In this document: piece after piece, positions 23,039 to 53,140 of the stretch
How the letters are laid out: each line of letters begins with the position of its first letter
How positions within the stretch are numbered: position 1 is the first letter of the stretch
Assembly: GCA_965197925.1 (NCBI GenBank)
Contig: CBDAOC010000018.1
Location: 160,001-224,000, forward strand
Direction: 5' to 3'
DNA from: Nitrososphaerales archaeon
GTDB taxonomy: Archaea; Thermoproteota; Nitrososphaeria; Nitrososphaerales; UBA213
Length of the DNA: 64,000 nt
Program-made: the position numbers and the translations under genes
Notes under the pieces: generated by a model
What the model was told of the DNA's origin: nothing
Seen by the model: only the letters and a program-made list of their open reading frames with translations
Database searches by the model: none

Positions 23039-26000
23039 TCATATGTGGCCAGTAGTTACTAAACGAAGAATAGAAAAAATTGGTTTTATATCTCCCTTAA
23101 TTATGAGCTTCACAGCGGAATAATGCCTCACCGTTCTGACAAGTCCCCCCCCAACATCATTCTCACCGCCATCTAACCTATCTATACCTATACCACCAAA
23201 CAAGTTATCATCTCCATCTTGTCCAAATAAACTGTCATCCTCTGTTCCACCAGACAAACCATCATTACCATCCCCACCAAATATACGGTCATTTCCAGAA
23301 CCACCAAATGCTCTGTCATTACCTTGACCAAGACTTATGAAGTCGTGTCCCATTCCACCACCTGCTGTATCATTACCATTTCCTCCAAATATCTTATCAT
23401 CTCCATCTCCACTACAGATTATGTCATTGCCGCCTAATCCAACTATGGTATCATTTCCTCCCAATCCATGGATTACATCAACTTCGCCTGTTCCCACAAG
23501 GATATCATTACCTGCAGTGCCTATTAGAGTAGGCATCACATTAAAGCAGTTTAGCCCAATTCCTTCAATATTTATGATACCATTAAACTCCTGGTTCATA
23601 GATGAACCATCTCTGATATCCATGTAATTTGCTTCAAGGTCCATCATCTCTGTTATCACAGATACGGGAGGAGTTTCAGGAGTGCCAGGCGTTGCATCAA
23701 CCAGTATCGCCATTGGTATGGTTATCTGTGCTACAAATGTTCCAGTATTGGTACCTGTCTCCAATAGTGTAGTATTTACTGCATTGAAGAAAGAGTCTAT
23801 TTCTCCTGGTGCACAGCTATTGGCATCACCACCTAGTATACCAGATACCGCTGGATCTACCTCTGAGCATACTCTTTCTTCACTTAACTCGAAGAAGACA
23901 AAACTATCAATGGGTAGGTGGTACCTCTCTTGGGAATCTGCTCTTCTGTTAAGGTCCTCATCCTTTATGGTCAGGAAGGCATCCTGTCCAAATGAGAATA
24001 AACTCCTATCCCATTCTATCATACCATCTCTAGTTTCGTAGTCGAATGTTACATTTACTTCCCTGAAGAAATCTACGCTGTCAGTATCGAAGTATGTGAA
24101 CGCTAATCTGTTGGGTGTAACTAATCTATTCGGTACCCACATCTTCACTGGATCACCAGTCAAGGTAATGTCAGCCAATATATCCGACACGGTGTCGAAT
24201 TGGTTGAACGTGAAAAAATCAGCCCTCCCGCTGAATACACTGGAGTTAGAACCATCTTCACCAAGGTCCATCCTGTAGGCAACGTTTGAGAATGCAGTAC
24301 CTATAGGTGAGGCGATATTGTCAGGCTCCTGATCGGTTGGTGCAGGAGAGAATACTACGCCGAGTCCAACTATGTCTACTAGTATGGTGTGGGCAACTAG
24401 ACTTATGATATCAGCCGTATCGATTATTCCTGAATCATCATCTAGTAAGAGTGTAGTTACTCTAATCTGGTCCTCTGGTTCAACCATTGGATAGTCTACC
24501 AAGTCAAGAACTCTGAATGCACCCACAGAGATCCTACTTGTTGTTAGGTCTCTGTCGAAACCAACAGCATCGCTACCTGTTAGTGTGTCCCAAGGATCAC
24601 CTGGTCCAATTACACCAGGAGACAAATCAGGTAAGCTATCATAAACTTCTCCAGTCAATGGATTTCCGTCTATGTCTCTATTGTCCGTCTCTTTTATCTG
24701 AAAGTCAACTATCTGTGATGCATGTACACATGTCTCGTCGAATGCGATCTCTGAATCTGTTTCTCCATCAGCCATACATGCTGGATCTACAGCGTCTATC
24801 TTTGCAACTAGTTGTTCGATTCCTGTTGTGGTATGAAGTTGTTGTACATTCATGTGCAGAAGGTTATACCTTGGCATGTCAACGGTAAGCAATTCATCAT
24901 CAGGTATAGGACCTGCGCCCAATAGGCCGAGAACTACATCCCTTCCTATTACCTCACCTGTAGATCTGGTGATTCTTGCTACTTGTGTGACAAAGTTCTC
25001 TTGCTGTTCATCCAGCAATGAACCGCCAAATTCCTGTAAGTTATTTACCCTTATCTGTCCCAGAATCTGGGCTTTAGTGGCCGTTGTACTGAATTGGACA
25101 TCATTGATATCGTCAATGGTTACACTGGTATCAATCATGATGGCATTGGGATTGTCAAAGCCGATCCGATCTGTGGTAAATACTAGGGAGAACTTGTCAT
25201 TTTCTGTTGGTAAATCAAATTCACTATCCCTGCTGACTGCTATAATATCAAAAAAATGAGCTTGGAACGCCTCTGGACCGAACGTGCCTCCTGTAGCGTC
25301 AACTACATCATCATCGTTGAAATCTGCAAGAACGTTAGCTCCTGTGTCATTTAGACCGAACAATGCAGTATCCCCTTGCGCTGACAAGAATATAGCTTCC
25401 CATATCTGAAGGACGTTGTTCAATGTTGGGTCAAATATTCCACCGGCATCAAGAGCAGTCCTCGTGTTAATTAGAGGGATTGGTTCTCCAACTTCTAATA
25501 TGTTGTTTGCATTCCTTCCATCACGTGGTTCACTTGCTGCGCTACTCAAGTTCTGGTCAGGATCTGTGACAATAAATACCGCTCTATCAGCAGAATCAAA
25601 AACCTCTCCATCAACACTTGTAATGCCATCATGTAAAGCAAATGGAACACTGCTGACTAAATCGAAGTACTTGAAATTAGCAATTCTGTCTCTAACACCT
25701 GCGAATATTGTAGACCTGTCACCTTTTCTTGCTTGACCCGTGTTGAAGCTGCCAGAGTTTGGTTTGGCTGATGCTTCATTGATCCTAACTACAGATGAAA
25801 GGTCTCCTGGTTGTGCAGCACTGATATCTATTGGTATAGCGGTACCTGGTAAGAATACAGTATCGATATCGTCAAATTCTGTAGTTAATCTGGCATTCTC
25901 TCTTACTAGAATGAATGAGGAGAGTCTGGTACAAAGTTCACTTCCCTATCCAGAGATTCTGAAAAGGCGAAGATCCATGCTACAGATTCAACTCCATCGT

Positions 26001-26268
26001 CAAGCTCGAGTATCTGTCTGTGGTCAAAGTCAATGTCGGGGAATATTGGAAGTACATCCTGTTTTTTAATTGATCCTTTTGGCGAGCTTAGAATCTTCTC
26101 TATGAATCCAGTGTCTTTGTTCAAGACCATAAAAAGTTGGTCAACTTCTCGTGGATTAATATTCCACTGAAAGTCGTTGATTTCGTAGAATATCTCTGCA
26201 CCCAGTAGATAAGAATTTCTATCTAGGGATGATGTAATAGATTCCGGCAAGTCATCAAATGTAAGTAT
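23039..26268 (-). pseudogene. Large acidic surface (S-layer-like) protein with C-terminal RTX Ca-binding repeats; frameshifted and 5'-truncated by IS5
   Basis: The 23039-25549 frame stays open to about 25915, then shifts to ORF 25906-26250; D.DLN and ETG.NTGTF motifs; GGxGxD nonapeptides; probable shift at a G run near 23146. Confidence 0.8.
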
Positions 26269-27148
26269 GAAGTCATCCCAATACTCTCCAATACATCATA
26301 ATCGACGAAATGATAACAAATGCCAGATAGTTTTGTGCATTCTTCTCATATCTGATCCTGGTTCTGTGGAACCCATTCTTCAACCAGGCAAAGAATCTCT
26401 CCACAACATAGCGCGTCTTGCCGTATAGGTATTGTTCTGTATTATCATTTTGTTGTTGTGTCTTACTGTTTTTTCTGTAAGGTATGCAGTCAGAGATTTT
26501 TCTTTTGGTGAGGTATTTCCTGATGAATTCTGCATCATAGCCCTTGTCTGCTTGGCACCGCGCAATTTTTCTGATAGATCTCTCATCCAGATATTGTGAG
26601 ATGCCATCCATCACGTCTACAAATCTTGCAGAGTCATGCTGATTTGCAGGACCCATCACTACTGAGACTGGCAGTCCGTTTTGTTCCACCGCAACGTGTA
26701 TTTTTGTGCCTGAAATCCTGTTGAATCCGTTGTATCCTATGACGCTTCCCCTTTTTTGGCCGGAACTGATGACGAATCGACCGTTTTTTGCAGCTGCATC
26801 TTGCCTGATCTGTGGGCTGATTTGACTGCAGCGGAGAGGATATTCTTCCATATTCCACGTCGCTGCCAGTTCTGCAGTCTGCGGTGCGCAGTTGATTTGG
26901 AGCCGTACCTTTGTGACATCCCAGTCCACCTGCATCCTGTTATCCCGACAAACAGGATTCCGTTGACTGTCTTTCTGTCGTCTGCCCTTGGCCTTCCGGT
27001 TCTGGCTGGCTTGGGGAGATGCGGTGATATCATCTTCCATTGTTCACCTGTTATCTCCTGAAATTTCATGATCTGCTACGGGCAGCATTGCAAATAGATC
27101 CAAATGATCGTCAATTATTCACTAAATGATCAGTTTTGGGATCAGTTG
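26269..27148 (-). mobile_element. IS5-family element type B, copy 1 (apparently intact, -1 frameshift type)
   Basis: ORFs 26737-27069 and 26273-27040 overlap at GCC AAA AAA GGG G; imperfect TIRs; DKGYD and RYVVERFFAW motifs. Confidence 0.93.
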
Positions 27149-28757
27149 GATAAAGGTAAACGTTGACTTCGTAGAACTTTCAGCTTGATGTATAACTTCC
27201 CATCCTTTTCGAATGTTTCAATGTGCTCAATATCCCGTTTTCCTAAATTACCAAACCCTCGTTGCTTCCATTTACCATTGAACCTATAAAATCCATTTTG
27301 AAGGTAGAACACGTCATCAGCATGATCCTTGGAAGAAAACTCACCTAACTCCGAGGAGTCTAGGCCAAGTTCTTTGGTGGTGCAGATTGAATCGGTTGCA
27401 AAACTAACAACACCCCTTCCCAAGGCATTATCAACCACAAATTTGTAAAGCTAAGCTCTAGTACTCCCTGTTATGGTTGCAAAAATAACAGGGCAGAATA
27501 AGTTTCCTATTACGTGTTTAACTTTCTGGCCTGTCTTTCCGTATATAGAATTTAGAATTAACTTTATGACTGATTGACGTGGATCGTTAGCAGTCTTTAG
27601 TTCCATCCTTTTCTGGTAAAGGTCTTCAATAAAGTTCTTGTATGGACGATAATCAGAGTTTGGGATAAACTGCCGAGATTGCAATATTTTATAATATGTA
27701 TTTGGACATGCTCTCAGCTCATCTATCGTTGCATATGTTATGAAACGGCCAGAAGGAAAGCTCAAGTCGCCATTAACTCTAAAAGGAAATGGTGCGATGT
27801 AATTCCCGTCTGGAATGTCTGCCAGAATTTTGAAAAAGCCTAGCTTTGCGTCATAATGAATATTGTTTCCATTTATCCACCTTCCGTCAGTCAGATCTGG
27901 AAGTTTAGCATTTTATCTGGATATGCCGAGTTTATATCATATAGGAATGCCTTGCCAATGAACCCACGTTTCAGCATCTCAAATCTTCCCCCAAAATATG
28001 ATCGAAAAGCCAAGTCCTGTACGTCATAGGGAATGGAATCAAACAGTGGAAAGTTTAACCCACTGTTTATCACCACCTTTTCTGCTAGATATGCAGGTGA
28101 GAGCCATTTTTGTGGAAAAAATCCAAAGATATCATAAAACAGATGTATCCAATGTTGTGATAACTCTTCCGTATACTTACAGTCCTGAATACAATAATTT
28201 CTTACCTCATTAGTATTACGGCGATAAAACCTTGGAGAAAATTGACTTCTATCCCCCTTGAAACCTAGATACGACTCATCTACGGGGCCTATATTATCTT
28301 GGTAATCCTTTGCAAGACCCTTACCGTAGAATTGCGCTATATCATAAAACTTTACGGAATGATGACCTTTATTGATAGTGAGACATTTTTTCGGATAGTA
28401 AGTATAGCGGTAATCTCCATACTTGAACGATAATTTTCCAGTAGTCTTATACGTGCTTAACGCATTCCCAAACACTGCTTTTAAAATAACTTCAGCATCA
28501 TATTCCAATCGATAGAAGAAATTCCATGCACCTTGGTACTTCTTACAATAAAGAAATCTTGTCAAAGACATAGGCGTTATTTTATCGAGATACCTTTTAT
28601 CAGAATCTGCTATTAGAAATACATCGCCCTGATAGGTTTCTACATCTACAGCATAGACTTTTCGTGGTTCTGATTTTGCTGGATCTCTGTACTGGATTTT
28701 ATTAGTCCATAACTTTCGTAGATCCTTGTAGTCTGTTATGGAGATGGATTCTGCCAT
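27149..28757 (-). pseudogene. Protein-primed family B DNA polymerase (casposon-type); one frameshift, one in-frame stop, 3'-truncated by IS5
   Basis: ExoI VDVET, ExoIII YCIQD, SYFGGRFE, motif A YDINSAYP, motif B KLILNSIYGKTGQ, motif C ATDS across ORFs 27891-28757, 27451-27765, 27142-27438. Confidence 0.9.
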
Positions 28758-29081
28758 ACGACATCAGGAATTGACCCTTCTTTGCCTTCTTTTCTTGCCT
28801 TGAATTCCTTTCGTATCTCCTGATATGGTACTTCCGGAAAGTTATCATGAATCAATCTTATGTAGCGATGATAATTTTTTAGTTTGCTTGACCGTGATAT
28901 TTTTCCTTCAGATTTCCTTTCTTCCTCCTCCACTTCTCTTTCAGCCCTTCTTCGCTTTTGTCTTGATTTTTTCCAGCTTTGATGTAAGCTCCTTTCTTAG
29001 TTGCCTCACCGTTCTTGTGTTTGGAAAATTCTTTAGGGTCCTTATGAGTTCAATTAATTTACTATCATCAAGTTGGGACAT
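28736..29081 (-). pseudogene. Small basic protein overlapping the pPolB start, frameshifted
   Basis: MSQLDDSKLIELIRTL... from 29081 shifts into ORF 28736-28933 (RSSKLKNYHRYIRLIHDNFP...WQNPSP). Confidence 0.6.
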
Positions 29082-29109
29082 TCATTATCACTTCCGAAAT
29101 AAAAAATCC

Positions 29110-29469
29110 TTAGGGCGATCTGCTTTCGAATTCAAAAACAAATCGCCTGATAGTTCTCCCTGTTGTCAGTGACTTCCCTAACCATGTTTTTAGTTTGAAT
29201 TTTATACCTGGTTTGATGAGTCCCTCCTCATATGTGCTCCATTGGTTCTGTAGACTGACATTGTTGGACGTGTTTGATTTCAGTAGAATTACAACGTCGT
29301 GGAATTTGTCGTCTTGTTTTAGCTGTGCTTTGACATTCGTAGAATACATGGTCTCGAATGTCTCGATATCTGTTATCTTCATCTCTAGGATGTCTGGATT
29401 GTTTGCGTCACTGGATTTGTAGGGCCCCCAATTGACGAATGGAGCCCAGTTAGTTCGGTCCTGTGTCAT
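29110..29469 (-). CDS. Hypothetical beta-rich protein in the pPolB operon (possible OB-fold SSB)
   Basis: 119 aa, overlaps the upstream gene; aromatic and beta-strand pattern; fold is inference. Confidence 0.6.
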   Translation of the reverse strand: MTQDRTNWAPFVNWGPYKSSDANNPDILEMKITDIETFETMYSTNVKAQLKQDDKFHDVVILLKSNTSNNVSLQNQWSTYEEGLIKPGIKFKLKTWLGKSLTTGRTIRRFVFEFESRSP

Positions 29470-29653
29470 TGCTCTTTATCCCCTTAATGGGCGTCAGAGT
29501 GAGCTTTCCATCTGTACCCATGGTCATATATACTCTCATTCCTTTATCCAGGAAATTGTCGGTGAATGTCTTAGGCAAAGTAACCACTTTTGAAAAATTC
29601 ATGGTGCTCACCTTCCTTATGCCTAGATTCAGATTCTTCTTCATATTTTTCAT
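29450..29653 (-). CDS. AbrB/SpoVT-like DNA-binding protein
   Basis: RKV...SKVVTLPK....G..V.M...DGKLTLTP swapped-hairpin pattern. Confidence 0.7.
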   Translation of the reverse strand: MKNMKKNLNLGIRKVSTMNFSKVVTLPKTFTDNFLDKGMRVYMTMGTDGKLTLTPIKGIKSNDTGPN

Positions 29654-29720
29654 TTCAATCGTTATGCTTTACGTTATCTTATTATATATGACCTATGTTA
29701 AGTAGGTTGACCTATAAATA

Positions 29721-30359
29721 ATGATTAGCAGTGAACCACGCAGAACAGACAAGAGTGTCCCTAGGAGGACGGAGTTTGGAGAAGTAAAGCAAAGAGAGAT
29801 ATCGATTCTTAAAACCATCAAGGAACATCCAAACATACATCACAACGCATTGAAGAAAATTATTGTTGAGGAGCTGGATCTTGTAGCAATTAAAACATTT
29901 GACCGATTAATAAAAGAATTGATAAAAACTTACAAGATTTCTTTTACTTATGAGAATAATAAAAAGCTCTATTCGATTCCAAATATTTCAATTCTACAAG
30001 ATTCTCAGGATTTAATAATACCGTATCTAAACTCTATGAACGAGCATCTTAAAATATTTGAAAAAGTGTATCCAAGGCTGTCTTATTATGAGAAGGTTGT
30101 AATTTCAGAGCATTTTGTTAAACAATTGCTGAGTAACTTATACGGGATAGATTTGTACCGTCAAATTAATTCTGATAAAAAAATAGAAGATTATCTTCAA
30201 ATCAAAGATGATTTTATGAAAAAGATAAGGAAGATTTTAGAAATATTCTCCCACGATTCTGCCGGTGGTGCTTTAACTTCCAACCTTCTATTTAGCATAA
30301 TAAATCTGAATCCAGATCAGAATGCCGAAGTAGCCTCCCTAATGAATTCTAAGAAATAA
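29721..30359 (+). CDS. Winged-HTH-like regulator, divergent from the pPolB operon
   Basis: ILKTIKEHPNIHHNALKK...KTFDRLIKEL...KLY N-terminal wHTH pattern. Confidence 0.65.
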   Translation: MISSEPRRTDKSVPRRTEFGEVKQREISILKTIKEHPNIHHNALKKIIVEELDLVAIKTFDRLIKELIKTYKISFTYENNKKLYSIPNISILQDSQDLIIPYLNSMNEHLKIFEKVYPRLSYYEKVVISEHFVKQLLSNLYGIDLYRQINSDKKIEDYLQIKDDFMKKIRKILEIFSHDSAGGALTSNLLFSIINLNPDQNAEVASLMNSKK

Positions 30360-30374
30360 TAAAATTCCTCTATT

Positions 30375-30605
30375 CTAATCAGATCCACTTCCAGAGTCCA
30401 CCTTGAGGACCTCACAAAATTCTTCTACAATAGTTATTTCGGAGAGGCTCTTTACCTTTGGTTCTCTGCTTGATTGCGTTTCTATTTTTTCTTTGATTAC
30501 TTTCCGTATAGGAGCTGAAGGAGTGCATCCCTCTTTGTTGCATATATCCACTAATCTATTATGTTCATCCTCTGTAAGTTTGTTAGATACCATTCGTTGA
30601 CCCAC
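30375..30605 (-). CDS. Small RHH/CopG-like protein (left IR copy)
   Basis: RMVSNKLTEDEHNRLVDICNKEGCTPS strand-helix-helix pattern. Confidence 0.6.
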   Translation of the reverse strand: MGQRMVSNKLTEDEHNRLVDICNKEGCTPSAPIRKVIKEKIETQSSREPKVKSLSEITIVEEFCEVLKVDSGSGSD

Positions 30606-30670
30606 GGTAGACCTAGGTAGACAATAGATAGACCTGAGCTAAAAAACTTTCGATTATAATAAATTCAACG

Positions 30671-30777
30671 CTTACGACAAGCGTCAGTTTTCTAGGCGTA
30701 AAAGGGGGGGATACCATTTTTATTCAGTAGCTATAAAAAGTGATTCCCCCCTCCTAGGCACGGATTTGTGTCGCTTA
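30671..30777. mobile_element. Head-to-head pair of putative casposon termini
   Basis: ...AAAAGGGGGGGATACCATT, about 19 bp, then AAGTGATTCCCCCCTCCTAGG...; each side has a further copy at 31723 or 34277. Confidence 0.6.
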
Positions 30778-30861
30778 CTAGATTATAATACACGTTATGG
30801 TCTACCTCTATAATCGAAAGTTTTTTAGCTCAGGTCTATCTATTGTCTACCTAGGTCTACC

Positions 30862-31092
30862 GTGGGTCAACGAATGGTATCTAACAAACTTACAGAGGAT
30901 GAACATAATAGATTAGTGGATATATGCAACAAAGAGGGATGCACTCCTTCAGCTCCTATACGGAAAGTAATCAAAGAAAAAATAGAAACGCAATCAAGCA
31001 GAGAACCAAAGGTAAAGAGCCTCTCCGAAATAACTATTGTAGAAGAATTTTGTGAGGTCCTCAAGGTGGACTCTGGAAGTGGATCTGATTAG
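30862..31092 (+). CDS. Small RHH/CopG-like protein (right IR copy)
   Basis: Identical to 30375-30605. Confidence 0.6.
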   Translation: MGQRMVSNKLTEDEHNRLVDICNKEGCTPSAPIRKVIKEKIETQSSREPKVKSLSEITIVEEFCEVLKVDSGSGSD

Positions 31093-31247
31093 AATAGAGG
31101 AATTTTATTATTTCTAATTAAGCAATGCAGCTAAGGTAATCAATATCCTTCTTTTGGGCGATATTTTTTACCATATATAAAAACAAAGGTGTAGATCCCC
31201 AACTATAATTAACCCTATATGATCCTTATAGAATAAATGATTGAGAA

Positions 31248-31722
31248 ATGAAAGTGTGGAGATCCTTCGGGGAAGCCAGAAAGTTTGTACATTCATTAAA
31301 ACTAAAAAATAAGAACGAGTGGCAACAATATTGCAAGTCTGACGAAAAACCTGGTGATATTCCGTCTTCACCGGATAAGATCTATCGAAATAAGAGTTGG
31401 TATGGTTATCTTGACTGGTTAGGGAACGAGGCGAAAAGGGGTAGAAAACTTTGGCTAGGAAAGCATTTTGCAGAAGAACGTCAGAGAAAGCTGAACAAGG
31501 CGGGAAGGGGTAGAAAGAAATCGGAAGAACATAAAAGAAAGAAGAGCAGGTAAAAACGGTAAAAAAAGAACAGAAGAATCAAAGAGAAAGATGAGTGAGG
31601 CGGCAAAGGGCAAAACAAATTCTGGTCACTTCAAAAAAGAGGTAATACCTTAAAATAGAGGAAAAAGAGGAGTATATTCAGAAGAAACTAAGAGAAAGAA
31701 GAGCGAGGCGATGAATGGTAAA
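31248..31722 (+). pseudogene. Integrase-repeat-unit protein with NUMOD3-like repeats, broken
   Basis: SFGEARKFVHSLKLK...EW..YCK....DIPSSPDKIY....WYGYLDWLG, then SEEHKRKKS, TEESKRKMSEA and SEETKRKKSEA across stops and shifts. Confidence 0.7.
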
Positions 31723-31761
31723 AAGAGTATCCCCCTCCTAGGCACGGATTTGTGTCGCTTA
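31723..31761 (+). repeat. Third terminus-like motif
   Basis: AAGAGTATCCCCCTCCTAGGCACGGATTTGTGTCGCTTA; last 31 nt identical to 30747-30777. Confidence 0.85.
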
Positions 31762-32142
31762 TCTAAATTAATACGCAGGTTATGATTAGTTGGATAATGG
31801 TTAAGATCTTAATAAGTCAATACATTGTGAAAAGTTTATTCTTGCACAGTTATGGACTTTTAATAAAAGTCAAGAATATCAGATTAGTATTCTCTTAAGG
31901 AATAGATCCCTTCAATGACAATAGGGAAATCTTAGAGCTGCCTGCAAGAGCTTGTCCATTTTAAAGTGATCATACAGGGGAATGGTTATGTTTCTATTGA
32001 AGCATTGTAGTACTTGTCAGAATCAAATATCAATGTAGTATTGTTGGATAAGCATGGTAAGTTATACACCTTGATTAAACTGTAGATAGACCTTGGTATA
32101 TGTTAATTAACTTTAAAATCGAGATTATACATATGATATATT

Positions 32143-32349
32143 TTGAAAGTTGCAAGTACGAATTTGGACAACATATCAAATGATAAGATTATAAAAAAAT
32201 GCAAATCATGCAGAGAGAGTATTGCCGAACACATAAAGAACCTTATTTTACAAAATCTAAATGAAGATAACCAGGTTCCTAAACTTAGGATTACTGGTAT
32301 TGATGATATTCCTTACCAGAATGGAGAGCTAAATTTCGAAGATGAGTAG
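32143..32349 (+). CDS. Hypothetical protein (CxxC), possibly remnant
   Basis: 68 aa TTG ORF with KKCKSC. Confidence 0.35.
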   Translation: MKVASTNLDNISNDKIIKKCKSCRESIAEHIKNLILQNLNEDNQVPKLRITGIDDIPYQNGELNFEDE

Positions 32350-32614
32350 ATAGAGATTGAAGATTGAAGTGTCCGTCTGATTATGAGGGAAGTAGCTAAG
32401 GAAGAATTTGATAATCAGACTTTGTGCAAGAAGTGTAGAAGAAGAACCAGGTAATCAGCAGGGCCTGACTGCGAGAGTCTACATACCTAACCTTAAGTAT
32501 TAATTATTCGTAACATATGCAAACACATGATTAGTGATGAACGGATATTATTCGGCCCTGACAGCAGCTTCTACATAGCCATATATACCCCTTATTGAAA
32601 ATTAGAAACAATAT

Positions 32615-33178
32615 ATGCCACAAACAAAGGCGGTTGTTAGCGTAGAAAATGTCGTTGCGTCTGCAAGCGTAAATCAAAGGATAAATCTTAACGATATAAC
32701 ACAAAAATTTCCTGACGTCGAATACCATCCCGATCAGTTCCCGGGCTTGGTCTTTAGGATAAAATCACCCAAAACCGCTACCTTAATCTTCAGTACTGGC
32801 AAGATGGTTTGTACAGGTGGCAAATCAGAAGATCAATCTATCAAGGCTGTAAATAGTGTAGTTCAGAAACTGAAGAAGGGTGGGATTCCCATAGAAAACG
32901 AACCTTCCATAGAGATACAGAACATAGTTGCATCTGTCAATCTAGGGGGCAAGATAAACATAGAACTTGCTGCTAGAGTGTTACCTAGGAGCATGTATGA
33001 GCCAGAGCAGTTCCCTGGCTTGATACACAGAATACTGGATCCTAAAAGTGTAATACTTCTATTTGCTAGCGGTAAGCTCGTATGTACTGGTACCAAGAAG
33101 GAGAACGAGGTTTATAGAGTAATAAACGCGTTGCATATACTGCTGGAAGAGAAGGAGTTAATGATATACGAGAGTTAA
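32615..33178 (+). CDS. tbp: TATA-box-binding protein
   Basis: Two repeats: ENVVAS..YHPDQFPGLVFR..LIFSTGKMVCTG and QNIVAS..YEPEQFPGL..LLFASGKLVCTG. Confidence 0.97.
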   Translation: MPQTKAVVSVENVVASASVNQRINLNDITQKFPDVEYHPDQFPGLVFRIKSPKTATLIFSTGKMVCTGGKSEDQSIKAVNSVVQKLKKGGIPIENEPSIEIQNIVASVNLGGKINIELAARVLPRSMYEPEQFPGLIHRILDPKSVILLFASGKLVCTGTKKENEVYRVINALHILLEEKELMIYES

Positions 33179-33214
33179 ATCTTCTGTTTGATCTGTTTTC
33201 TCGAACGATAACCA

Positions 33215-33244
33215 GTTTGAATCGAACTATTATAGAATTGAAAG
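33215..33244 (+). CRISPR. Solitary 30-bp CRISPR-type repeat
   Basis: GTTTGAATCGAACTATTATAGAATTGAAAG, same family as the repeats at 33585 and 33651. Confidence 0.75.
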
Positions 33245-33584
33245 TCTTAAGAATATCTTAAGACCATGTGGTATAATCTGGATGCTGATGATGAAAGGAA
33301 AAGCCGTCTGAAGTTTGATGAATAATATAGGCGAGTTGAAGCATCCTCTAAAGCCCACATTGATGGAATCTTGACAATCTTATCAGTCTTGGGAGTAGTT
33401 GGAGAGTATTTGAAGAGTGTTTTAATGTAATCTTAAGAAATGTTAAGAGTGGTTTGAGAGTATTTGAAGACCATCATAAGAGTATTTTAATACTCAATCA
33501 TAATTATAATTACGTACAGGGTCTTCTCGATTCTATTCGTGGAAAACTACTTGTAGAAAATTCTACGAATAGAATCTATATCAT

Positions 33585-33680
33585 GTTTGAATCGAACTCT
33601 TATAGGATTGAAATGATGTTAGCGTTATGGTCGTGGTAACTGATTGTGCGGTTTGAATCGAACTAATTGGAAATTGAAAC
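33585..33680 (+). CRISPR. CRISPR mini-array B: 2 divergent 30-bp repeats, one 36-bp spacer
   Basis: GTTTGAATCGAACTCTTATAGGATTGAAAT, spacer 33615-33650, GTTTGAATCGAACTAATTGGAAATTGAAAC. Confidence 0.8.
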
Positions 33681-34017
33681 TTGAATTCGATCTAATTCCG
33701 TTCTACAGAGACAACAAAACTAACTTTTTTGATATGATCTTTTAGATGGATACTAACACCGTAACCTTTCAGTAATTTGATATTGTAATGGTTCTTCTTT
33801 CCTTTGAGTAACATGATCTATCAGATTTCACTGATCAAAATCTTTACGGCAGAGTGTCATATTTTTAAGCGGAAAGTGGGACATACAATTTTTTTGATTG
33901 GTGTTGTAGTAAGGAATATGTTAGAGGGTTGTTCATTCCAACTTTTCATAACCTATCTATAACTTTGGAGTATTTGCATCTTATGATAGAACTCTAGAAC
34001 ATCGTAAAAAGAAACAT

Positions 34018-34124
34018 AGAACAGATAGAACACCTCAGAACAGAGAACAGGCCCTATACAGTATCTATACAGTATCTATACAGTATCTATACAGTAGGAT
34101 TATCTGTTCTGCGTTCTGTGTTCT
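34018..34124. repeat. Iteron-like structure: AGAACA x4, 11-bp tandem core x4, inverted (T/C)GTTCT x3
   Basis: CTATACAGTA(T) at 34054, 34065, 34076, 34087, flanked by opposed hexamer runs. Confidence 0.75.
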
Positions 34125-34257
34125 TTTCCTACTTGAGGATAAGGTGAAGGATTAGACGACTTGGATATTTGGCAATCTACAACTGCAGAGGATATCAGTG
34201 GGCAAAAATGACCTATTCGAATGTGTTGCATGTTGCGTGTTGCAGATTTTTTGCTTA

Positions 34258-34323
34258 GAATTTATTGATGAAGAATAAGAGTATCCCTCCACCTTACGCA
34301 TGGAAATCTGACGCTTGTCGTAA
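34258..34323 (+). mobile_element. Fourth terminus-like motif preceded by an aEF-2 3'-end-like sequence
   Basis: GAA TTT ATT GAT GAA GAA TAA runs into GAGTATCCCTCCACCTTACGC...CTGACGCTTGTCGTAA; last 16 nt match the reverse complement of 30672-30687. Confidence 0.6.
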
Positions 34324-34438
34324 AGCTTGTATGTATCATATTCGAAAAGTTTAGATCTATTCTACCTGTAGTCTAAGATCATGGACTCTACAAGATTCGA
34401 GTTACAAAACAGATAGTATATAGCAGCGTTATCCAATT

Positions 34439-34747
34439 TTGATGGGATTGGGCTCGATAAAGATACTCATAGATGCAATGCGTGACGGGATTGACCTAGA
34501 ATTAAATAAACTGGGTTATGAGGCTTATAGCGTCAGGAAGCTTGTTGAGAAGGGAGAGAAATTAAAGAGTGATTATTCTATTATAAAATATGCTGAACAA
34601 AATAAAATGATTTTGGTTACAGAAGATATTGATAACATAGAGGGTTGTATGGAGAACAACATAGAATGTGTACACTTTGAACAGATTCATTCTCTCAACT
34701 ATCTTCTGGAAGCGTTAGAAAAGATAACACAGATTGAATTAGCATAG
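34439..34747 (+). CDS. DUF5615 / PIN-like domain protein
   Basis: KILIDAM..., LGYEAYSV, SDYSIIKYA, ILVTED. Confidence 0.8.
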   Translation: MMGLGSIKILIDAMRDGIDLELNKLGYEAYSVRKLVEKGEKLKSDYSIIKYAEQNKMILVTEDIDNIEGCMENNIECVHFEQIHSLNYLLEALEKITQIELA

Positions 34748-34790
34748 AACCATCTAGATCATGGTTTAGCTTTAGTCTATCAGGTCTACA

Positions 34791-35015
34791 ATGACTCTAC
34801 GAGTTGTGTATAAATTAACAGAAGAAGAGCATGCAAGGTTGCTTGAATTTTGCAGTAGGGGAGGATGTACTCCATCTGCAATGGTAAAAGAAACTATTAT
34901 CATAAGGATTATACCCGAATCTCCGACGAGAGAGAGAAACCTTATGGACATGTTAAGAGAACTTTCGAACAAACACCAACTAGTGAAGAGCTGTAAGAGT
35001 AGTTTTCACTATTGA
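34791..35015 (+). CDS. RHH/CopG-like protein, paralog of the IR-encoded gene
   Basis: RVVYKLTEEEHARLLEFCSRGGCTPSA versus RMVSNKLTEDEHNRLVDICNKEGCTPSA. Confidence 0.6.
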   Translation: MTLRVVYKLTEEEHARLLEFCSRGGCTPSAMVKETIIIRIIPESPTRERNLMDMLRELSNKHQLVKSCKSSFHY

Positions 35016-35258
35016 ACTTAATAAGAGAAAAAGGATTCTAGGTCAAAATATAATTTTTTGTTGGAAGTGGTAAATCTTGAAGTGGTATTATTTGAACTGT
35101 CACCGCATCTATAGAGATAATATTCAGCTTTACTTAATATGTTGTATCTATAGATATATCTATAGATATAGGATAAGTTTAAACAAATCAAAGGATTTGA
35201 TTCCTAAGACATTATAGCAGTTTCATAAATTAATCTTACTAAACCATTTTTATATAAT

Positions 35259-36136
35259 GAAGTCATCCCAATACTCTCCAATACATCATAATCGACGAAA
35301 TGATAACAAATGCCAGATAGTTTTGTGCATTCTTCTCATATCTGATCCTGGTTCTGTGGAACCCATTCTTCAACCAGGCAAAGAATCTCTCCACAACATA
35401 GCGCGTCTTGCCGTATAGGTATTGTTCTGTATTATCATTTTGTTGTTGTGTCTTACTGTTTTTTCTGTAAGGTATGCAGTCAGAGATTTTTCTTTTGGTG
35501 AGGTATTTCCTGATGAATTCTGCATCATAGCCCTTGTCTGCTTGGCACCGCGCAATTTTTCTGATAGATCTCTCATCCAGATATTGTGAGATGCCATCCA
35601 TCACGTCTACAAATCTTGCAGAGTCATGCTGATTTGCAGGACATTACTACTGAGACTGGCAGTCCGTTTTGTTCCACCGCAACGTGTATTTTTGTGCCTG
35701 AAATCCTGTTGAATCCGTTGTATCCTATGACGCTTCCCCTTTTTTGGCCGGAACTGATGACGAATCGACCGTTTTTTGCAGCTGCATCTTGCCTGATCTG
35801 TGGGCTGATTTGACTGCAGCGGAGAGGATATTCTTCCATATTCCACGTCGCTGCCAGTTCTGCAGTCTGCGGTGCGCAGTTGATTTGGAGCCGTACCTTT
35901 GTGACATCCCAGTCCACCTGCATCCTGTTATCCCGACAAACAGGATTCCGTTGACTGTCTTTCTGTCGTCTGCCCTTGGCCTTCCGGTTCTGGCTGGCTT
36001 GGGGAGATGCGGTGATATCATCTTCCATTGTTCACCTGTTATCTCCTGAAATTTCATGATCTGCTACGGGCAGCATTGCAAATAGATCCAAATGATCGTC
36101 AATTATTCACTAAATGATCAGTTTTGGGATCAGCTG
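35259..36136 (-). mobile_element. IS5-family element type B, copy 2 (2-bp deletion breaks ORF B)
   Basis: Near-identical to 26269-27148; GGACATTAC versus GGACCCATCAC near 35640. Confidence 0.93.
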
Positions 36137-36580
36137 TACATCTTCATTGCCTACAGGAATGGTAAGGTATGTTGTAGGAGATGAAGGATATGATGATCAC
36201 AAGTTATGTGATTTCAGCAGGTATAGAGGGCATCCAGTATTCCCATTGGAAAGGTACAAGCATACTACAGATAATAATAGACTGGCATTGCTGCAGTTCT
36301 ATCAATCTGAATTTAGACAGCATGTATATTCTCGGAGGAGCATAAGTGTTGAGCCATTGATAGAGCATATGAAGGATGTATTTACCATAGATCCATTGCC
36401 AGTTAGAGGGTTCGATAAGGTAAGGAACATCGTTCTGATTTCTATATTGCTATACCAGCTGATGGTATACTACAACTACTTGACGGAAGACCATTAAGGG
36501 CATTGAAGCACATGTTGGGAAGTTAATCAATCAGAGGCATCAAGTTATTTTTGTTATATGGAATAATGCCCATGCCTCAA
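36137..36580 (+). mobile_element. 5'-truncated copy 2 of the 3501-4596 IS
   Basis: TSSLPTGMVRYVVGDEGYD onward matches copy 1; same right end ATGCCTCAA. Confidence 0.9.
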
Positions 36581-36803
36581 CTAATTCATCGTTCGTTGGA
36601 GACTTGATTATTATATCTAGAAGAACGTTTGAGGTAGGGCTTTCATTATATTCTACCCAACCCATTATGGTTACTGTTTCACCTTTTTCATAATCTACCT
36701 TTTTCATCTCTATGATTGGCTTCGATACGTGTGTAGCAAAAGCATCGGATGTAAAAACTGAGAATATTAAAAGAAGAATCAAGGTAGATATCACTTTCAT
36801 CAA
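36581..36803 (-). pseudogene. Secreted protein N-terminus, truncated by IS end
   Basis: Signal peptide then YEKGETVTIMG Ig-like start; frame runs into the IS terminus. Confidence 0.6.
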
Positions 36804-36950
36804 TGTCTAGTCACAATTATCCAATTTGAATTTTTATAATTTGAAACGTCAATCTAGAAAACAATTATTCTCTGCATTCCTAAAGCTAACATACCAATCA
36901 GTTATTAATAGTCATACACAATTGAAATACAAGTGTGGGGTATCTGATGT

Positions 36951-37142
36951 ATGCGCTTTAGTCTCTTTAGTAAGAAACAAAGGTGTAAGCTTTGTGGCAA
37001 TAGCTTTGGTACATTGGAAGAATTGATAGAACATTTAAGAAAGGAGCACAAGCGTAAAATGATAAAATGTAGCAAATGCAAGAGGGAGTTTCTTTACGAA
37101 TCAGAACGTTTTAAGCACATGAAAGAATTCCACAGGAAATGA
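36951..37142 (+). CDS. C2H2 zinc-finger protein
   Basis: CKLCGNSF.....L.EHL..EH and CSKC..EF......KHM..FH. Confidence 0.85.
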   Translation: MRFSLFSKKQRCKLCGNSFGTLEELIEHLRKEHKRKMIKCSKCKREFLYESERFKHMKEFHRK

Positions 37143-47319: not shown

Positions 47320-48190
47320 CAACTCATCTCAAAACTAACCATTTAGACAATTTTTAGCAACCATTTAGATCCATGAATAGCGACATCTAAAATTATTTTA
47401 TGAAATTCCAAGAATTATCAGACAAACAGTGGAGTATGATGGAATCACACATACCACCACATGCAAAAACTGGCAGGCCTAGGGATGATGATAGAAAAAT
47501 CATTAACGGAATAATCCATGTTCTAACTACTGGATGCCGATGGGACGATATGCCAAAAAGATATGGTGATGATTCTACTGCAAACAGAAGGTTAAACAAA
47601 TGGCAACAAAAAGGAATCTGGAAAAAGATTCTATCGCGTACTATTCACTCAGCACATAAATCTGGCAAAATTAATCTACAAATATCAGTTGACTCTTCAT
47701 CCATTCCTGATAAAAAAGGGGCAATGTAACTGGATATAATGGATTCAAGAGAATAACAGGTACAAAAATACATGCCGCAGTAGAGAGTAACGGATTTCCA
47801 ATATCCATACTGTTGAGTCCAGCAAATGAACATGACAGTACAAAATGCATGGATGTTACAGGATCAATTTCAGACTATCTTGATGATGATTCAATACAAC
47901 AGATAGAACCAGTTTATGCAGACAAAATGATGCAAAATACATCAGAATGTATTTGTGGGATAGAAATATTGCATGTTGCATCCCATACAAAATAAATTCC
48001 AAGTTCATCTTGCAAAATAATGATTGCAAACATTGCAACAAGACAAGATTTGTAGTTGAGAGATTCCTTGCATGGCTCAAGAATGGATTTCACAGAACAA
48101 GAATCAGGTATGAAAGAACGGCAGAAAACTACCTGGCATTTGTTAATCTTGCATCATTTTTGATGTATTGTAGGGTTTTGAGATGAGTTG
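47320..48190 (+). mobile_element. IS5-family element type A, copy 2
   Basis: Near-identical to 6627-7513 with the same TIRs and the same ORF B frameshift. Confidence 0.92.
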
Positions 48191-49116
48191 ATGGTGAGAT
48201 GCTTCATCGTTAGAGTATGGATAAGAATACCAAGCAACAATGCTTTGCATGAATACTATTCGATAGACATGCCATACAACAGGAAGGTAATGAAGGCATG
48301 TGGTCTTAATAGGTTGCCAGACAGAAGAACATTCGACAGAAGGTCAAGGCCGTATCAATTGACATAAGATCAAGGATAGATGTTATGGGTATGCTCTTCA
48401 TAAAAGATGGGTTGGTAGACCCATCCATAGTATCCGTTGACAGTTCCTTGTTGAAAGCAAAGGGACATGTATGGCATAGATCAAACATGAAGAAGAATGA
48501 AGTGCCACGCTCCGGTATAGATACAGATGCTCGATGGGGCTACAGCAGAACCAAGGGATGGGTATTCGGATACAAGATGCATCTAGCATGTAGCACAGGT
48601 TCATTGATAGTTCCATTATCAGCTGATTTCACAACAGCTAACATTACTGATAACAAGATGTATGAAAGCATAACATCTTCATTGCCTACAGGAATGGTAA
48701 GGTATGTTGTAAGAGATGAAGGATATGATGATCACAAGTTATGTGATTTCAGCAGGTATAGAGGGCATCCAGTATTCCCATTGGAAAGGTACAAGCATAC
48801 TACAGATAATAATAGACTGGCATTGCTGCAGTTCTATCAATCTGAATTTGGGCAGCATGTATATTCTCGGAGGAGCATAAGCGTTGAACCATTGATAGAG
48901 CATATGAAAGATGTATTTACCATAGACCCATTACCAGTTAGAGGATTTGATAAGGTAAGGAGTATAGTGTTGTTATCAGTATTGTTGTATCAGGTAATGG
49001 TGTACTACAATCATCTAGCAGGAAGACCATTAAGGGCATTGAAGCACATGCTCGGAAGTTAATCAATCAGAGGCATCAAGTTATTTTTGTTATATGTAAT
49101 AATGCCCATGCCTCAA
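48191..49116 (+). mobile_element. 5'-truncated copy 3 of the 3501-4596 IS
   Basis: ORF 48385-49062 near-identical to 3868-4542; right end ATGCCCATGCCTCAA; left end replaced by IS5. Confidence 0.9.
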
Positions 49117-49169
49117 TTATATGTGAAACATACATTTTGCATATTCATAAATCAGTTAACTAAATCCTA

Positions 49170-49705
49170 AGGAATCATTTTTCTACAGGTATATTGGGTT
49201 TAAGCTCACTGAAATCCAAGTGATTTATTCTTCCCTCAATATACATCATCAATTCTCTAGTCTTTATCTCGATAATACTAGATCACTGATGCTTTCTGTT
49301 CTTATAGATAACACTCATTCCAAAAAGTTTTCCAAGTTTGGTTAACAAAAGTTTTACAGCATTTGGTCTTAATCTAATGTTCCCTTTTAGTTTCTAGGAA
49401 ATCCTTCTTCTTTATCCACTTCCTAAATGCAATTTTAACAACAGTGATATCTAGCCATCTAAAAGGTTCCATCAAATCATATACCAATGATGCCTTATTG
49501 TTGTAGTTTTCATGCAAAAATCCTACATAAGCATCCAAACCAACTTTGTTGACAGCCTTCCAACATTCACTTTCTAAAACAGAATATCCATAATTCAGCA
49601 AAGCGTTAACAGGATCAATGACATTCCTGGGTTTTCTTTGACCACTCCTGGCTTCAAACTCAAACTTATCATCAATTACGTTAGTTATAGCATCCCAGTA
49701 TCATT
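49170..49705 (-). pseudogene. cas1: Cas1 C-terminal half, casposase-like, frameshifted
   Basis: DPVNALLNYGYSVLESEC..VGLDAYVGFLH...SLVYDLMEPFRWL, then in shifted frames LRPNAVKLL and IKTRELMMYIEG....LDFS; no cas2 or array beside it. Confidence 0.85.
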
Positions 49706-52967: not shown

Positions 52968-53049
52968 AAGTTTATTTTATATTCAAGATGCTAGAGGATT
53001 CCATATGAATTAGAGAAGGGATTCTGTGAGACAATTGTTTTTGAGATAG

Positions 53050-53140
53050 TGGGCCCGGAGGGATTCGAACCCTCGGCCTGAAGCTCCGCAAGCTCCCGCC
53101 ATATCCTCTCTATTCTATACGATGACTAGGCCACGGGCCC
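53050..53140 (-). tRNA. tRNA-Arg(GCG) with about 16-nt insertion in the D-loop
   Basis: GGGCCCG acceptor, anticodon arm GGAGC TTGCGGA GCTTC, T-arm GAGGG TTCGAAT CCCTC; 91 nt total. Confidence 0.88.

Follow-up and report, generated by a model that had tools for sequence, protein, structure and literature searches.

Casposons are transposons that insert by way of a Cas1-type integrase, the casposase, and that are copied by a protein-primed DNA polymerase (pPolB) of their own; they are also the likely ancestors of the CRISPR adaptation machinery. Family 1, the thaumarchaeal type, is to our knowledge the least sampled of the casposon families. We consider here a stretch of 64,000 nucleotides, called the window throughout, from a Nitrososphaerales archaeon (assembly GCA_965197925.1, contig CBDAOC010000018.1, positions 160,001 to 224,000). 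Within it, the region 27149-35256, bounded by two direct copies of an abundant 882-bp IS5-like insertion sequence (IS), is in our estimate, at a probability of about 90%, a graveyard of decayed family 1 casposons. This is a known family in a known host group, not a new kind of element: the host genome (2.9 Mb, 20 contigs, ~38% G+C) contains amoA (368.6 bits) and is therefore that of an ammonia-oxidising archaeon. The hint, in an earlier note made from the sequence alone, that the lineage might be one where casposons had not been described is unsupported as a claim of novelty, family 1 being recorded from ammonia oxidisers in PMC6563490.

The described members of the family provide the standard of comparison. 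PMC4046053 and PMC6563490 name NitAR1-C1, NitSJ-C1, NitAR2-C1, NitNF5-C1/C2, NitDev-C1/C2 and NitEve-C1, and the second of these articles places family 1 casposons in Nitrosopumilus, Nitrosotalea and Nitrososphaera. Both describe a set of three to four conserved small genes that immediately precede pPolB, and the position adjacent to pPolB was proposed as that of a terminal-protein gene by Krupovic et al. 2014 (PMC4046053). According to PMC6563490, the 3' end of ef-2 is the target of the family and tandem family 1 casposons were reported once, as NitNF5-C1/C2; a 13-bp target-site duplication has been measured for the casposase of N. koreensis (PMC8464041).

The identification as casposons, which the earlier note had already proposed, draws among other things on matches to terminal inverted repeats (TIRs), remnants of Cas1 and the polymerase tree. 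In what follows, C1, C6, C17, C18 and C20 designate contigs of the host genome and L001-L020 thaumarchaeal-type reference loci. The features concerned are:

27149..28757, minus strand: pPolB pseudogene in three pieces, recognised by Pfam DNA_pol_B_2, by identity to casposon pPolBs and by the tree
30671..30721, minus strand: TIR T1, subtype ...CTGACGCTTGTCGTAA, interior toward lower coordinates
30722..30734, no strand: 13-nt spacer, ATTCAGTAGCTAT, between the back-to-back T1 and T2
30735..30783, plus strand: TIR T2, subtype ...CCTAGGCACGGATTTGTGTCGCT
31720..31771, plus strand: TIR T3, same subtype as T2
31815..32076, plus strand: Cas1 pseudogene fragment of the L015/L019 type, residues ~11-95, interrupted by stops and a frameshift, behind T3
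33734..33817, minus strand: Cas1 pseudogene fragment, residues 1-30, of another type, like the intact Cas1 of C1, behind T5
33843..33893, minus strand: TIR T5, degenerate and tentative, within 30 nt of the Cas1 start
34258..34276, plus strand: copy of the ef-2 3' end (leader and 13-nt target), directly before T4
34277..34326, plus strand: TIR T4, same subtype as T1
C20:1009847-1015030 (locus L030 9848-15031): fragment running from the end of pPolB to a Cas1 stub

The four related motifs singled out in the earlier note have stood up well. A TIR profile built from 20 TIRs of other genomes alone, which avoids circularity, was searched against the whole 2.9-Mb genome and recovered all four far beyond chance: T1 at 30671-30726(-) with E 1.2e-10, T4 at 34277-34326(+) with E 9.2e-6, T3 at 31718-31771(+) with E 1.7e-4 and T2 at 30733-30783(+) with E 1.9e-3. 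Further ends were detected by the same profile at C20:205513-205558, C1:77854-77904, C20:766310-766361 and C6:3800-3851. Aligned over ~50 nt with the reference TIRs, the motifs match those of intact family 1 casposons in Nitrosopumilaceae genomes and share a common pattern (AAAAA, 5-6 nt, a C-run, ..TA.GC..). They fall into two subtypes, T2 and T3 resembling the L003 type and T1 and T4, which carry ...CTGACGCTTGTCGTAA, that of L014-L019. An exact match of 31 nt links 30747 in T2 to 31731 in T3, and 30643-30726 (T1) is 76% identical to 34269-34352 (T4) over 84 nt; T2 is moreover 96% identical over 50 nt to a TIR stub at the host ef-2 gene (C1:77856-77905).

The way in which these ends are placed may also be compared with that of the family. 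T1 and T2 stand back to back around a spacer of exactly 13 nt, A first and T last, as found in 6/6 reference junctions, a length equal to the duplication made by the N. koreensis casposase (PMC8464041). By hand count the spacer is 9/13 identical to the reverse complement of the host ef-2 target-site duplication, and it may be read, on the letters as they stand, as the decayed target-site duplication of a tandem insertion. The host ef-2 gene itself ends at C1:77856, its stop codon being immediately followed by the T2-like stub, which a second IS type has cut in turn. The flank of T4 in the window, GAATTTATTGATGAAGAAT, is identical to ef-2, GAATTTATTGATAAAGAAT (C1:77839-77857), at 18/19 positions, and the homology ends there; this flank is a secondary target, or else what remains of an array that was rearranged. 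The proposal that two or more casposons lay here in tandem or nested agrees with what is left, namely five ends of two TIR subtypes, two different N-terminal remnants of Cas1 and a 13-nt junction. Two other searches for target sites gave less. Looking genome-wide for 13-mers of the TIR flanks (<=2 mismatches) was swamped by chance matches, and the sole lead kept lies 3 kb downstream of the cas1 open reading frame (ORF) of C1, at C1:35814, where an end resembling a TIR precedes ACTGATAAAGAAT; tRNA-derived att sites are ruled out, as a tRNA scan shows none near the motifs. Back-to-back TIR pairs with exact 13-nt spacers are present in L002, L003, L004, L011, L014 and L017, and because such pairs occur in six loci, tandem arrays of family 1 may be more frequent than the one case reported in 2019 would suggest.

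Cas1 is recognisable at both ends of the segment that separates T3 from T5. The fragment at 31815-32076 is detected by tblastn with E 1e-9 to 6e-8; that at 33734-33817, with E 3e-7 to 1e-5 and 54-73% identity, is 85% identical in nucleotides to the 5' end of the C1 gene. The latter, a 398-aa ORF at C1:31612-32808 (Pfam Cas_Cas1 8.8e-48), is the sole intact-looking Cas1 of the genome, and its outer TIR has been replaced by the second IS type. Further Cas1 fragments exist on C17 and C20. Outside the flagged region the window has a third one at 49386-49700 (-), residues ~158-295, 43-50% identical, next to which the second IS type is present at 48186-49119.

The C1 gene calls for a few remarks of its own. 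Separated from the ef-2 TIR stub by 46 kb of C1, it comes immediately after a copy of the second IS type (C1:75639-77905; C1:30568-35826, L029), and the break at the ef-2 stub (77.9 kb) and that at cas1 (31.7 kb) both abut such copies and share GTAATT. A simple IS-mediated inversion or deletion that would have parted stub and gene was considered, and fails: the IS copies are directly oriented, and the present order is left unaccounted for.

Might the pieces bounded by TIRs, for example the 3.2-kb segment from T2 to T5 with its ribbon-helix-helix (RHH) gene, 101-aa ORF, Cas1 stubs and TBP gene, still be mobilised in trans by the C1 casposase as mini-casposons? The enzyme would be at hand in the intact Cas1 ORF just described, T2 and T5 do face inward, and the casposase of N. 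koreensis integrates varied TIR-derived substrates of up to ~4 kb in vitro (PMC8464041). We nevertheless hold such mobility to be very unlikely, as the flanks of T2 and T5 lack a matching duplication (5/13 identical, hand count), T5 is degenerate, the segment is found once in the genome, the C1 gene has lost its outer TIR to an IS, and no polymerase is left for copying.

The decay of the casposons shows in the polymerase gene. The minus-strand operon of the earlier note is indeed there, running from 29653 to 27149 with 67-aa, 119-aa and small basic ORFs and pPolB, and the enzyme is, as announced, a protein-primed PolB from 27149, but its gene has become a pseudogene, broken into three pieces and truncated by an IS at 27148/27149. 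Two of the pieces match Pfam DNA_pol_B_2 (E 7e-9 and 8.4e-7). A 1-nt frameshift lies near 27895-27900, directly after the DINSAYP motif, an in-frame TAG stop occupies 27451-27453, and, aligned to full-length relatives of 597-636 aa, the frame ends ~57-65 residues early at the IS. The missing C-terminus, 57 codons, is encoded at C20:1009847-1010017 and begins exactly where the window copy stops, with ...RLPLS in the window and IIQNQISDIGK... on C20, to be compared with ...RLRSSILQDNISEIGK... in L002. There it is followed by a 1011-aa protein with EVE and AAA_5 (McrB-like) domains, a 475-aa protein and a convergent C-terminal stub of Cas1, and this C20 fragment is probably the other half of the window casposon, with a McrBC-like defence cargo. 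No other pPolB, and no intact one, was found in the host genome. With three lesions in the one copy and no second copy, the sequence argues against self-synthesis and transposition, and the elements are probably dead as autonomous units.

Sequencing reads allowed us to control this state of decay. Eighteen runs are listed, nine of which hold at least half of the sampled words; X1, X3 and X4 are DNA runs from three studies. Their contigs match 27124-30381, 31086-31760, 31732-34083 and 34701-35278 without difference, those over 27124-30381 including the IS junction, the frameshift and the stop. This agreement between three DNA runs means that neither the lesions nor the two IS junctions arose as mistakes of the present assembly, although the three runs may all stem from the same organism. 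An extra C at 30745 appears in about half of the read depth.

The reads also brought some observations of a different kind. All three DNA runs lack 28 nt of the window at 34171-34198, an 11-nt tandem repeat lying just upstream (34047-34091). A 34-nt segment at 33278-33311, probably some short element present in several copies, shows a three- to six-fold spike of depth with loose ends on both sides in all runs examined; weak C/D-box small-RNA-like Rfam matches (E 0.3-0.5) span it, and the two Rfam C/D-box rows at 33281-33345, far below threshold, were left unused. From the RNA run X17, exact contigs cover 29221-29484 and 32852-33104; we claim no expression from them, since DNA carry-over is possible and contigs cannot show transcripts.

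The insertion sequences that close the region at either end are:

26267..27148, minus strand: IS5-like copy 1, with a DUF4096 N-terminal ORF and a DDE transposase ORF, truncating pPolB
35257..36136, minus strand: IS5-like copy 2, in which a 2-nt deletion breaks the transposase ORF

The element is assigned through Pfam (DDE_Tnp_1 1.4e-22, DUF4096 1e-23), and its two copies are 99.66% identical with a 2-nt gap. As TTG opens the right flank in 36 of the 38 near-full copies of the genome, TTG belongs to the IS, which ends at 27148, and polymerase sequence starts at 27149. Copy 1 interrupts the reading frame of pPolB; copy 2 was inserted within another IS type. The IS load of this genome is very high altogether: besides the 38 IS5-like copies, at least one further IS type is present many times over.

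It would be tempting to see in two nearly identical direct copies, which bound the flagged region exactly, the arms of a composite transposon, the 8.1-kb stretch being a passenger that arrived as one block. This is highly improbable. Neither the outer nor the inner flanks of the two copies share a duplication, the block occurs once in the genome, the copies sit inside the pPolB frame and inside another IS type respectively, and where 38 near-full copies are scattered over a genome, two of them 8 kb apart are unremarkable.

Relatives of the polymerase place the wreckage among casposons. An exhaustive search with the N-terminal 288 aa of pPolB returned 1136 proteins at E <= 1e-3, 32 of them at E <= 1e-30, and a scan of one genome per species gave 24 loci, 20 of thaumarchaeal type (L001-L020). 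Cas1 is present in 16/20 of these; L009, L010, L012 and L020 are without it, three of them being short or cut contigs. The search for intact copies in related genomes, suggested in the earlier note, was thereby rewarded: L001-L004, L007 and others carry Cas1, the same operon of small genes and pPolB, and TIRs. L001-L004 in particular, with TIRs of 45-81 nt (82-100%), Cas1 and the operon, and with L003 and L004 at the ef-2 3' end, are for these reasons bona fide family 1 casposons, and the window pPolB is 53-63% identical to theirs in amino acids. Two observations on the reference loci may be added. L009 (CAZJUY010000064.1), a contig of 6.6 kb assigned to an 'uncultured Chitinophaga sp.' bin, has a thaumarchaeal casposon pPolB operon, 56-58% identical, and is probably mis-binned; Toll/interleukin-receptor domain proteins lie inside L001 (6917-7852) and L003 (12561-13598) (Pfam TIR_2 1.5e-17 and 1.4e-9) and look like defence-type cargo of family 1 casposons.

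The tree was computed from 57 rows and 620 columns by a quick method (LG+C20+F+G4), with branch support from the Shimodaira-Hasegawa-like approximate likelihood-ratio test (SH-aLRT); for the window row, the pieces were linked by X at the two breaks. It pairs the window (98) with G005, the sole other pPolB found in the taxonomic family of the host, where 1/8 genomes gave a match, as against 0/32 from other families of the order. Together they stand inside a 9-row clade (98) with six Cas1-linked rows of Nitrosarchaeum and Nitrosopumilus, itself nested in a 27-row thaumarchaeal clade (SH-aLRT 100) that holds all 15 Cas1-linked rows. The phylogeny called for in the earlier note has accordingly placed the enzyme with thaumarchaeal casposon pPolBs, all five viral rows (His1, His2, ABV and two tectiviruses) falling outside, with ABV and PR4 so long-branched that their own placement is unreliable. 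Neither of the two results that would have spoken against casposons according to the earlier note, a grouping with viral or plasmid enzymes and motifs unlike casposon ends, was obtained. That the operon came from a virus or linear plasmid (His1/His2-like or thaumarchaeal spindle-shaped), the motifs being its ends or att sites, is barely conceivable: such elements do share pPolB and TIRs, and His1 and His2 are the best matches in a phage collection (40 of 122 listed), but their identity is just 25-28% versus 53-63% to Cas1-linked loci, the viral rows lie outside the clade (in a tree that leaves out the Nitrosopumilus spindle-shaped viruses), a Pfam scan of 17 ORFs over 25906-36497 recognises no domain for capsid, packaging or tyrosine integrase, and Cas1 remnants adjoin the motifs.

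Around the polymerase of this decayed casposon, the small genes of the family are still in place:

28736..29081, minus strand: conserved small gene next to pPolB, at the position proposed for the terminal protein, split by a frameshift into 46-aa and 65-aa ORFs
29110..29469, minus strand: gene of a 119-aa conserved casposon protein, with homologues in 10/20 loci
29450..29653, minus strand: 67-aa ORF, first gene of the operon, with homologues in 6/20 loci
29721..30359, plus strand: divergent 212-aa ORF, possibly a winged-helix regulator

Homologues of the upstream small genes occur in the same order in L001-L013. What the earlier note took for a small basic protein exists as an ORF, but it corresponds to the C-terminal portion of a gene of ~105 aa that a frameshift has split in an A/G-rich linker; in 6/6 relatives translated the gene is a single ORF (102-130 aa as called), and 19/20 thaumarchaeal loci have a homologue of the 65-aa piece upstream of pPolB. 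The ORFs labelled AbrB-like, winged helix-turn-helix and RHH are all where they had been placed, while the labels themselves are sub-threshold (Pfam E 0.059, 0.003 and 0.016). For the 67-aa protein, whose match is to MazE_antitoxin, a sequence-profile search of its family against solved structures gave one match, not significant (E 0.28), and the AlphaFold 2 model is too poor (predicted local distance difference test, pLDDT, 66.8) to bear on the AbrB label. The 212-aa ORF has sub-threshold Pfam matches alone (E 0.003-0.03), and reference casposons hold a divergent ORF of 185-228 aa at the matching position. The model of the 119-aa protein is of another quality, with a b1-b2-b3-a-b4-b5 order of OB-like topology (pLDDT 73.3, predicted TM-score 0.61). 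Foldseek returned 0 matches for it at E <= 0.001, and VIA-align matches were weak (best Z 6.4; single-stranded DNA-binding proteins and other OB chains, Z 4-5.3); judged from this model the protein is a possible single-stranded DNA binder, to be taken as a lead.

The T1-T2 junction is enclosed in a palindrome, and a further gene pair follows T4:

30352..30658, no strand: left arm of a 307-nt inverted duplication, with RHH-like copy a at 30375-30605(-)
30809..31115, no strand: right arm of the duplication, with RHH-like copy b at 30862-31092(+)
34439..35015, plus strand: PIN-like (DUF5615) gene (Pfam DUF5615 8.7e-6) and third RHH-like gene

The three RHH-like paralogues of the earlier note are real: copies a and b are 100% identical, on arms that are 100% complementary, and the third, at 34791-35015(+), is 47-50% identical to them over 36-40 aa (E 2e-7 to 5e-7). 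Against solved structures the RHH-like family gave 12 matches, several of them known RHH proteins, the best at E 0.13, which is not significant. T1, the spacer and T2 fill the 150-nt centre between the arms, T1 and T2 being different. As a diverged version of the arm follows T4, the arm belongs by nature to the T1/T4 type, and to judge from the sequence, the one next to T2 seems to have arisen recently by inverted duplication. In the three DNA runs the arm forms one 307-nt contig at ~1.5-1.8x the depth of the neighbouring contig and the centre a separate exact contig. The PIN-RHH pair behind T4 would be a toxin-antitoxin-like cargo, and a second copy of the pair is found at C18:282399-282689. 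The one strong row of an Rfam scan of 26000-37000, MIR6224 (49.6 bits, gathering score 171), we rejected as the 307-nt palindrome imitating a hairpin.

If we now try to reconstruct what happened, at least three casposon copies, of two TIR subtypes, would once have been present at the site. The first would have left the 67-aa, 119-aa and putative terminal-protein genes, pPolB, the divergent regulator, an RHH gene and the end T1; the others just the ends T2-T5, two N-terminal stubs of Cas1 and a small cargo (RHH, PIN-RHH). Following the published biochemistry of the family, the casposase would have integrated at a 13-bp target patterned after the ef-2 3' end, and at least one tandem integration would have produced the succession of TIR, 13 nt and TIR. 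Decay would have started with point lesions, continuing with insertion of the expanded IS5-like element and with rearrangements; the lesions are there to be seen, their order we infer. Such rearrangements would have carried the last 57 codons of pPolB, the McrBC-like cargo and the C-terminal Cas1 stub to another contig, so that nothing at the locus could now transpose or replicate by itself.

Several observations weigh against this account of a casposon graveyard. No intact casposase lies in the flagged region, and because Cas1 is present only as fragments we speak of remains of casposons, not of a working member. The RHH gene follows the pPolB-side end T1, where the closest relatives have Cas1, which makes the pPolB element either rearranged or of a different layout. 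Which TIR is the one on the pPolB side is itself uncertain, as both orientations of the centre of the palindrome yield identical contigs and words. T5 was missed by the reference-only profile and has E 0.019 solely with a profile including the window's own TIRs, hence its tentative status. A target duplication on both sides is seen for no single element, nor does any inward-facing TIR pair with matching target duplications surround one; with neither an intact Cas1 nor a matched TIR pair to define them, how many copies there were at first, and where each was bordered, is a matter of reconstruction. The account does not cover the TBP gene and the 68-aa ORF that sit between the two inward-facing Cas1 stubs. 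Finally, no IS copy was found at the C20 break point of pPolB.

Some further features deserve mention for their own sake. The TBP gene, at 32615-33178 (+), is intact (Pfam TBP 1.1e-56) and has a paralogue at C17:125117-125677, 85% identical in protein. The 101-aa ORF (31248-31724, +) has a weak Integrase-repeat match (E 0.039) and continues in another frame with SEE.KRK.SEA..GK repeats, which presumably recall DNA-binding motifs of the NUMOD3 type; to judge by its letters it looks like a frameshifted gene that reaches T3. Contig C1 contains a 7-kb inverted duplication (99.6% identity), and ARAGORN reports at 53049-53140 (-) a tRNA-like gene of 92 nt, its four-letter anticodon undetermined, which may be an intron-containing tRNA.

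One may go further and propose, tentatively and as something rather doubtful when all its parts are taken together, that the pPolB copy had an undescribed family 1 layout, a mosaic of two thaumarchaeal clades. Its order would have been TIR, RHH regulator, divergent regulator, the operon of 67-aa, 119-aa, terminal-protein and pPolB genes, the McrBC-like cargo (EVE-AAA_5 and partner) and a convergent Cas1. The burst of IS would then have shattered the whole casposon population and left one orphan casposase, and the 307-nt inverted duplication would be a scar of fold-back template switching at the palindrome formed by tandem ends.

Whatever the layout, the graveyard of family 1 casposons has a meaning beyond the locus. 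It documents the extinction of casposons in one genome, with no polymerase copy intact and one orphan casposase, apparently at the hands of an IS burst, and it provides evidence for the ef-2-type 13-bp target and for tandem stacking outside the named genera. The work also yields a reference set of ~20 thaumarchaeal loci, most with Cas1 and TIRs, and in the OB-like model of the 119-aa protein it offers a lead on replication, a putative single-stranded DNA-binding partner of the protein-primed polymerase.

How, then, do these remains compare with what is known? They have in common with the named family 1 casposons (PMC4046053, PMC6563490) a pPolB of the casposon clade, upstream small genes, a compact Cas1 (here as stubs), the TIR consensus, the ef-2 3'-end target and a tandem insertion as in NitNF5-C1/C2. 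They differ from them in that every core gene of the window is broken or missing, that IS copies have cut up its elements, whose parts now lie on two contigs or more, that an RHH gene and not Cas1 comes after the operon-side TIR, and that a perfect 307-nt inverted duplication surrounds the TIR-spacer-TIR junction. The nearest loci, L002, L003, L004 and L007 of Nitrosarchaeum and Nitrosopumilus, show the same operon order, a pPolB 60-63% identical in amino acids, alignable TIRs and 13-nt spacers, and L002 also has an RHH-like gene beside one TIR; unlike the window, they keep an intact pPolB and an intact Cas1 directly behind the left TIR, and whereas L003 and L004 occupy the real ef-2 gene, the window copy is elsewhere, the host ef-2 being on C1. 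A second clade, L014-L019, has a layout of its own, with a fused upstream gene, large cargo after pPolB and a convergent Cas1; its pPolB is just 45-51% identical and it lacks the 119-aa and 67-aa genes, but the window shares with it the T1/T4 subtype of TIR, ...TGACGCTTGTCGTAA, and the type of Cas1 of the stub behind T3, and the C20 fragment repeats its succession of pPolB, large cargo genes and convergent Cas1.

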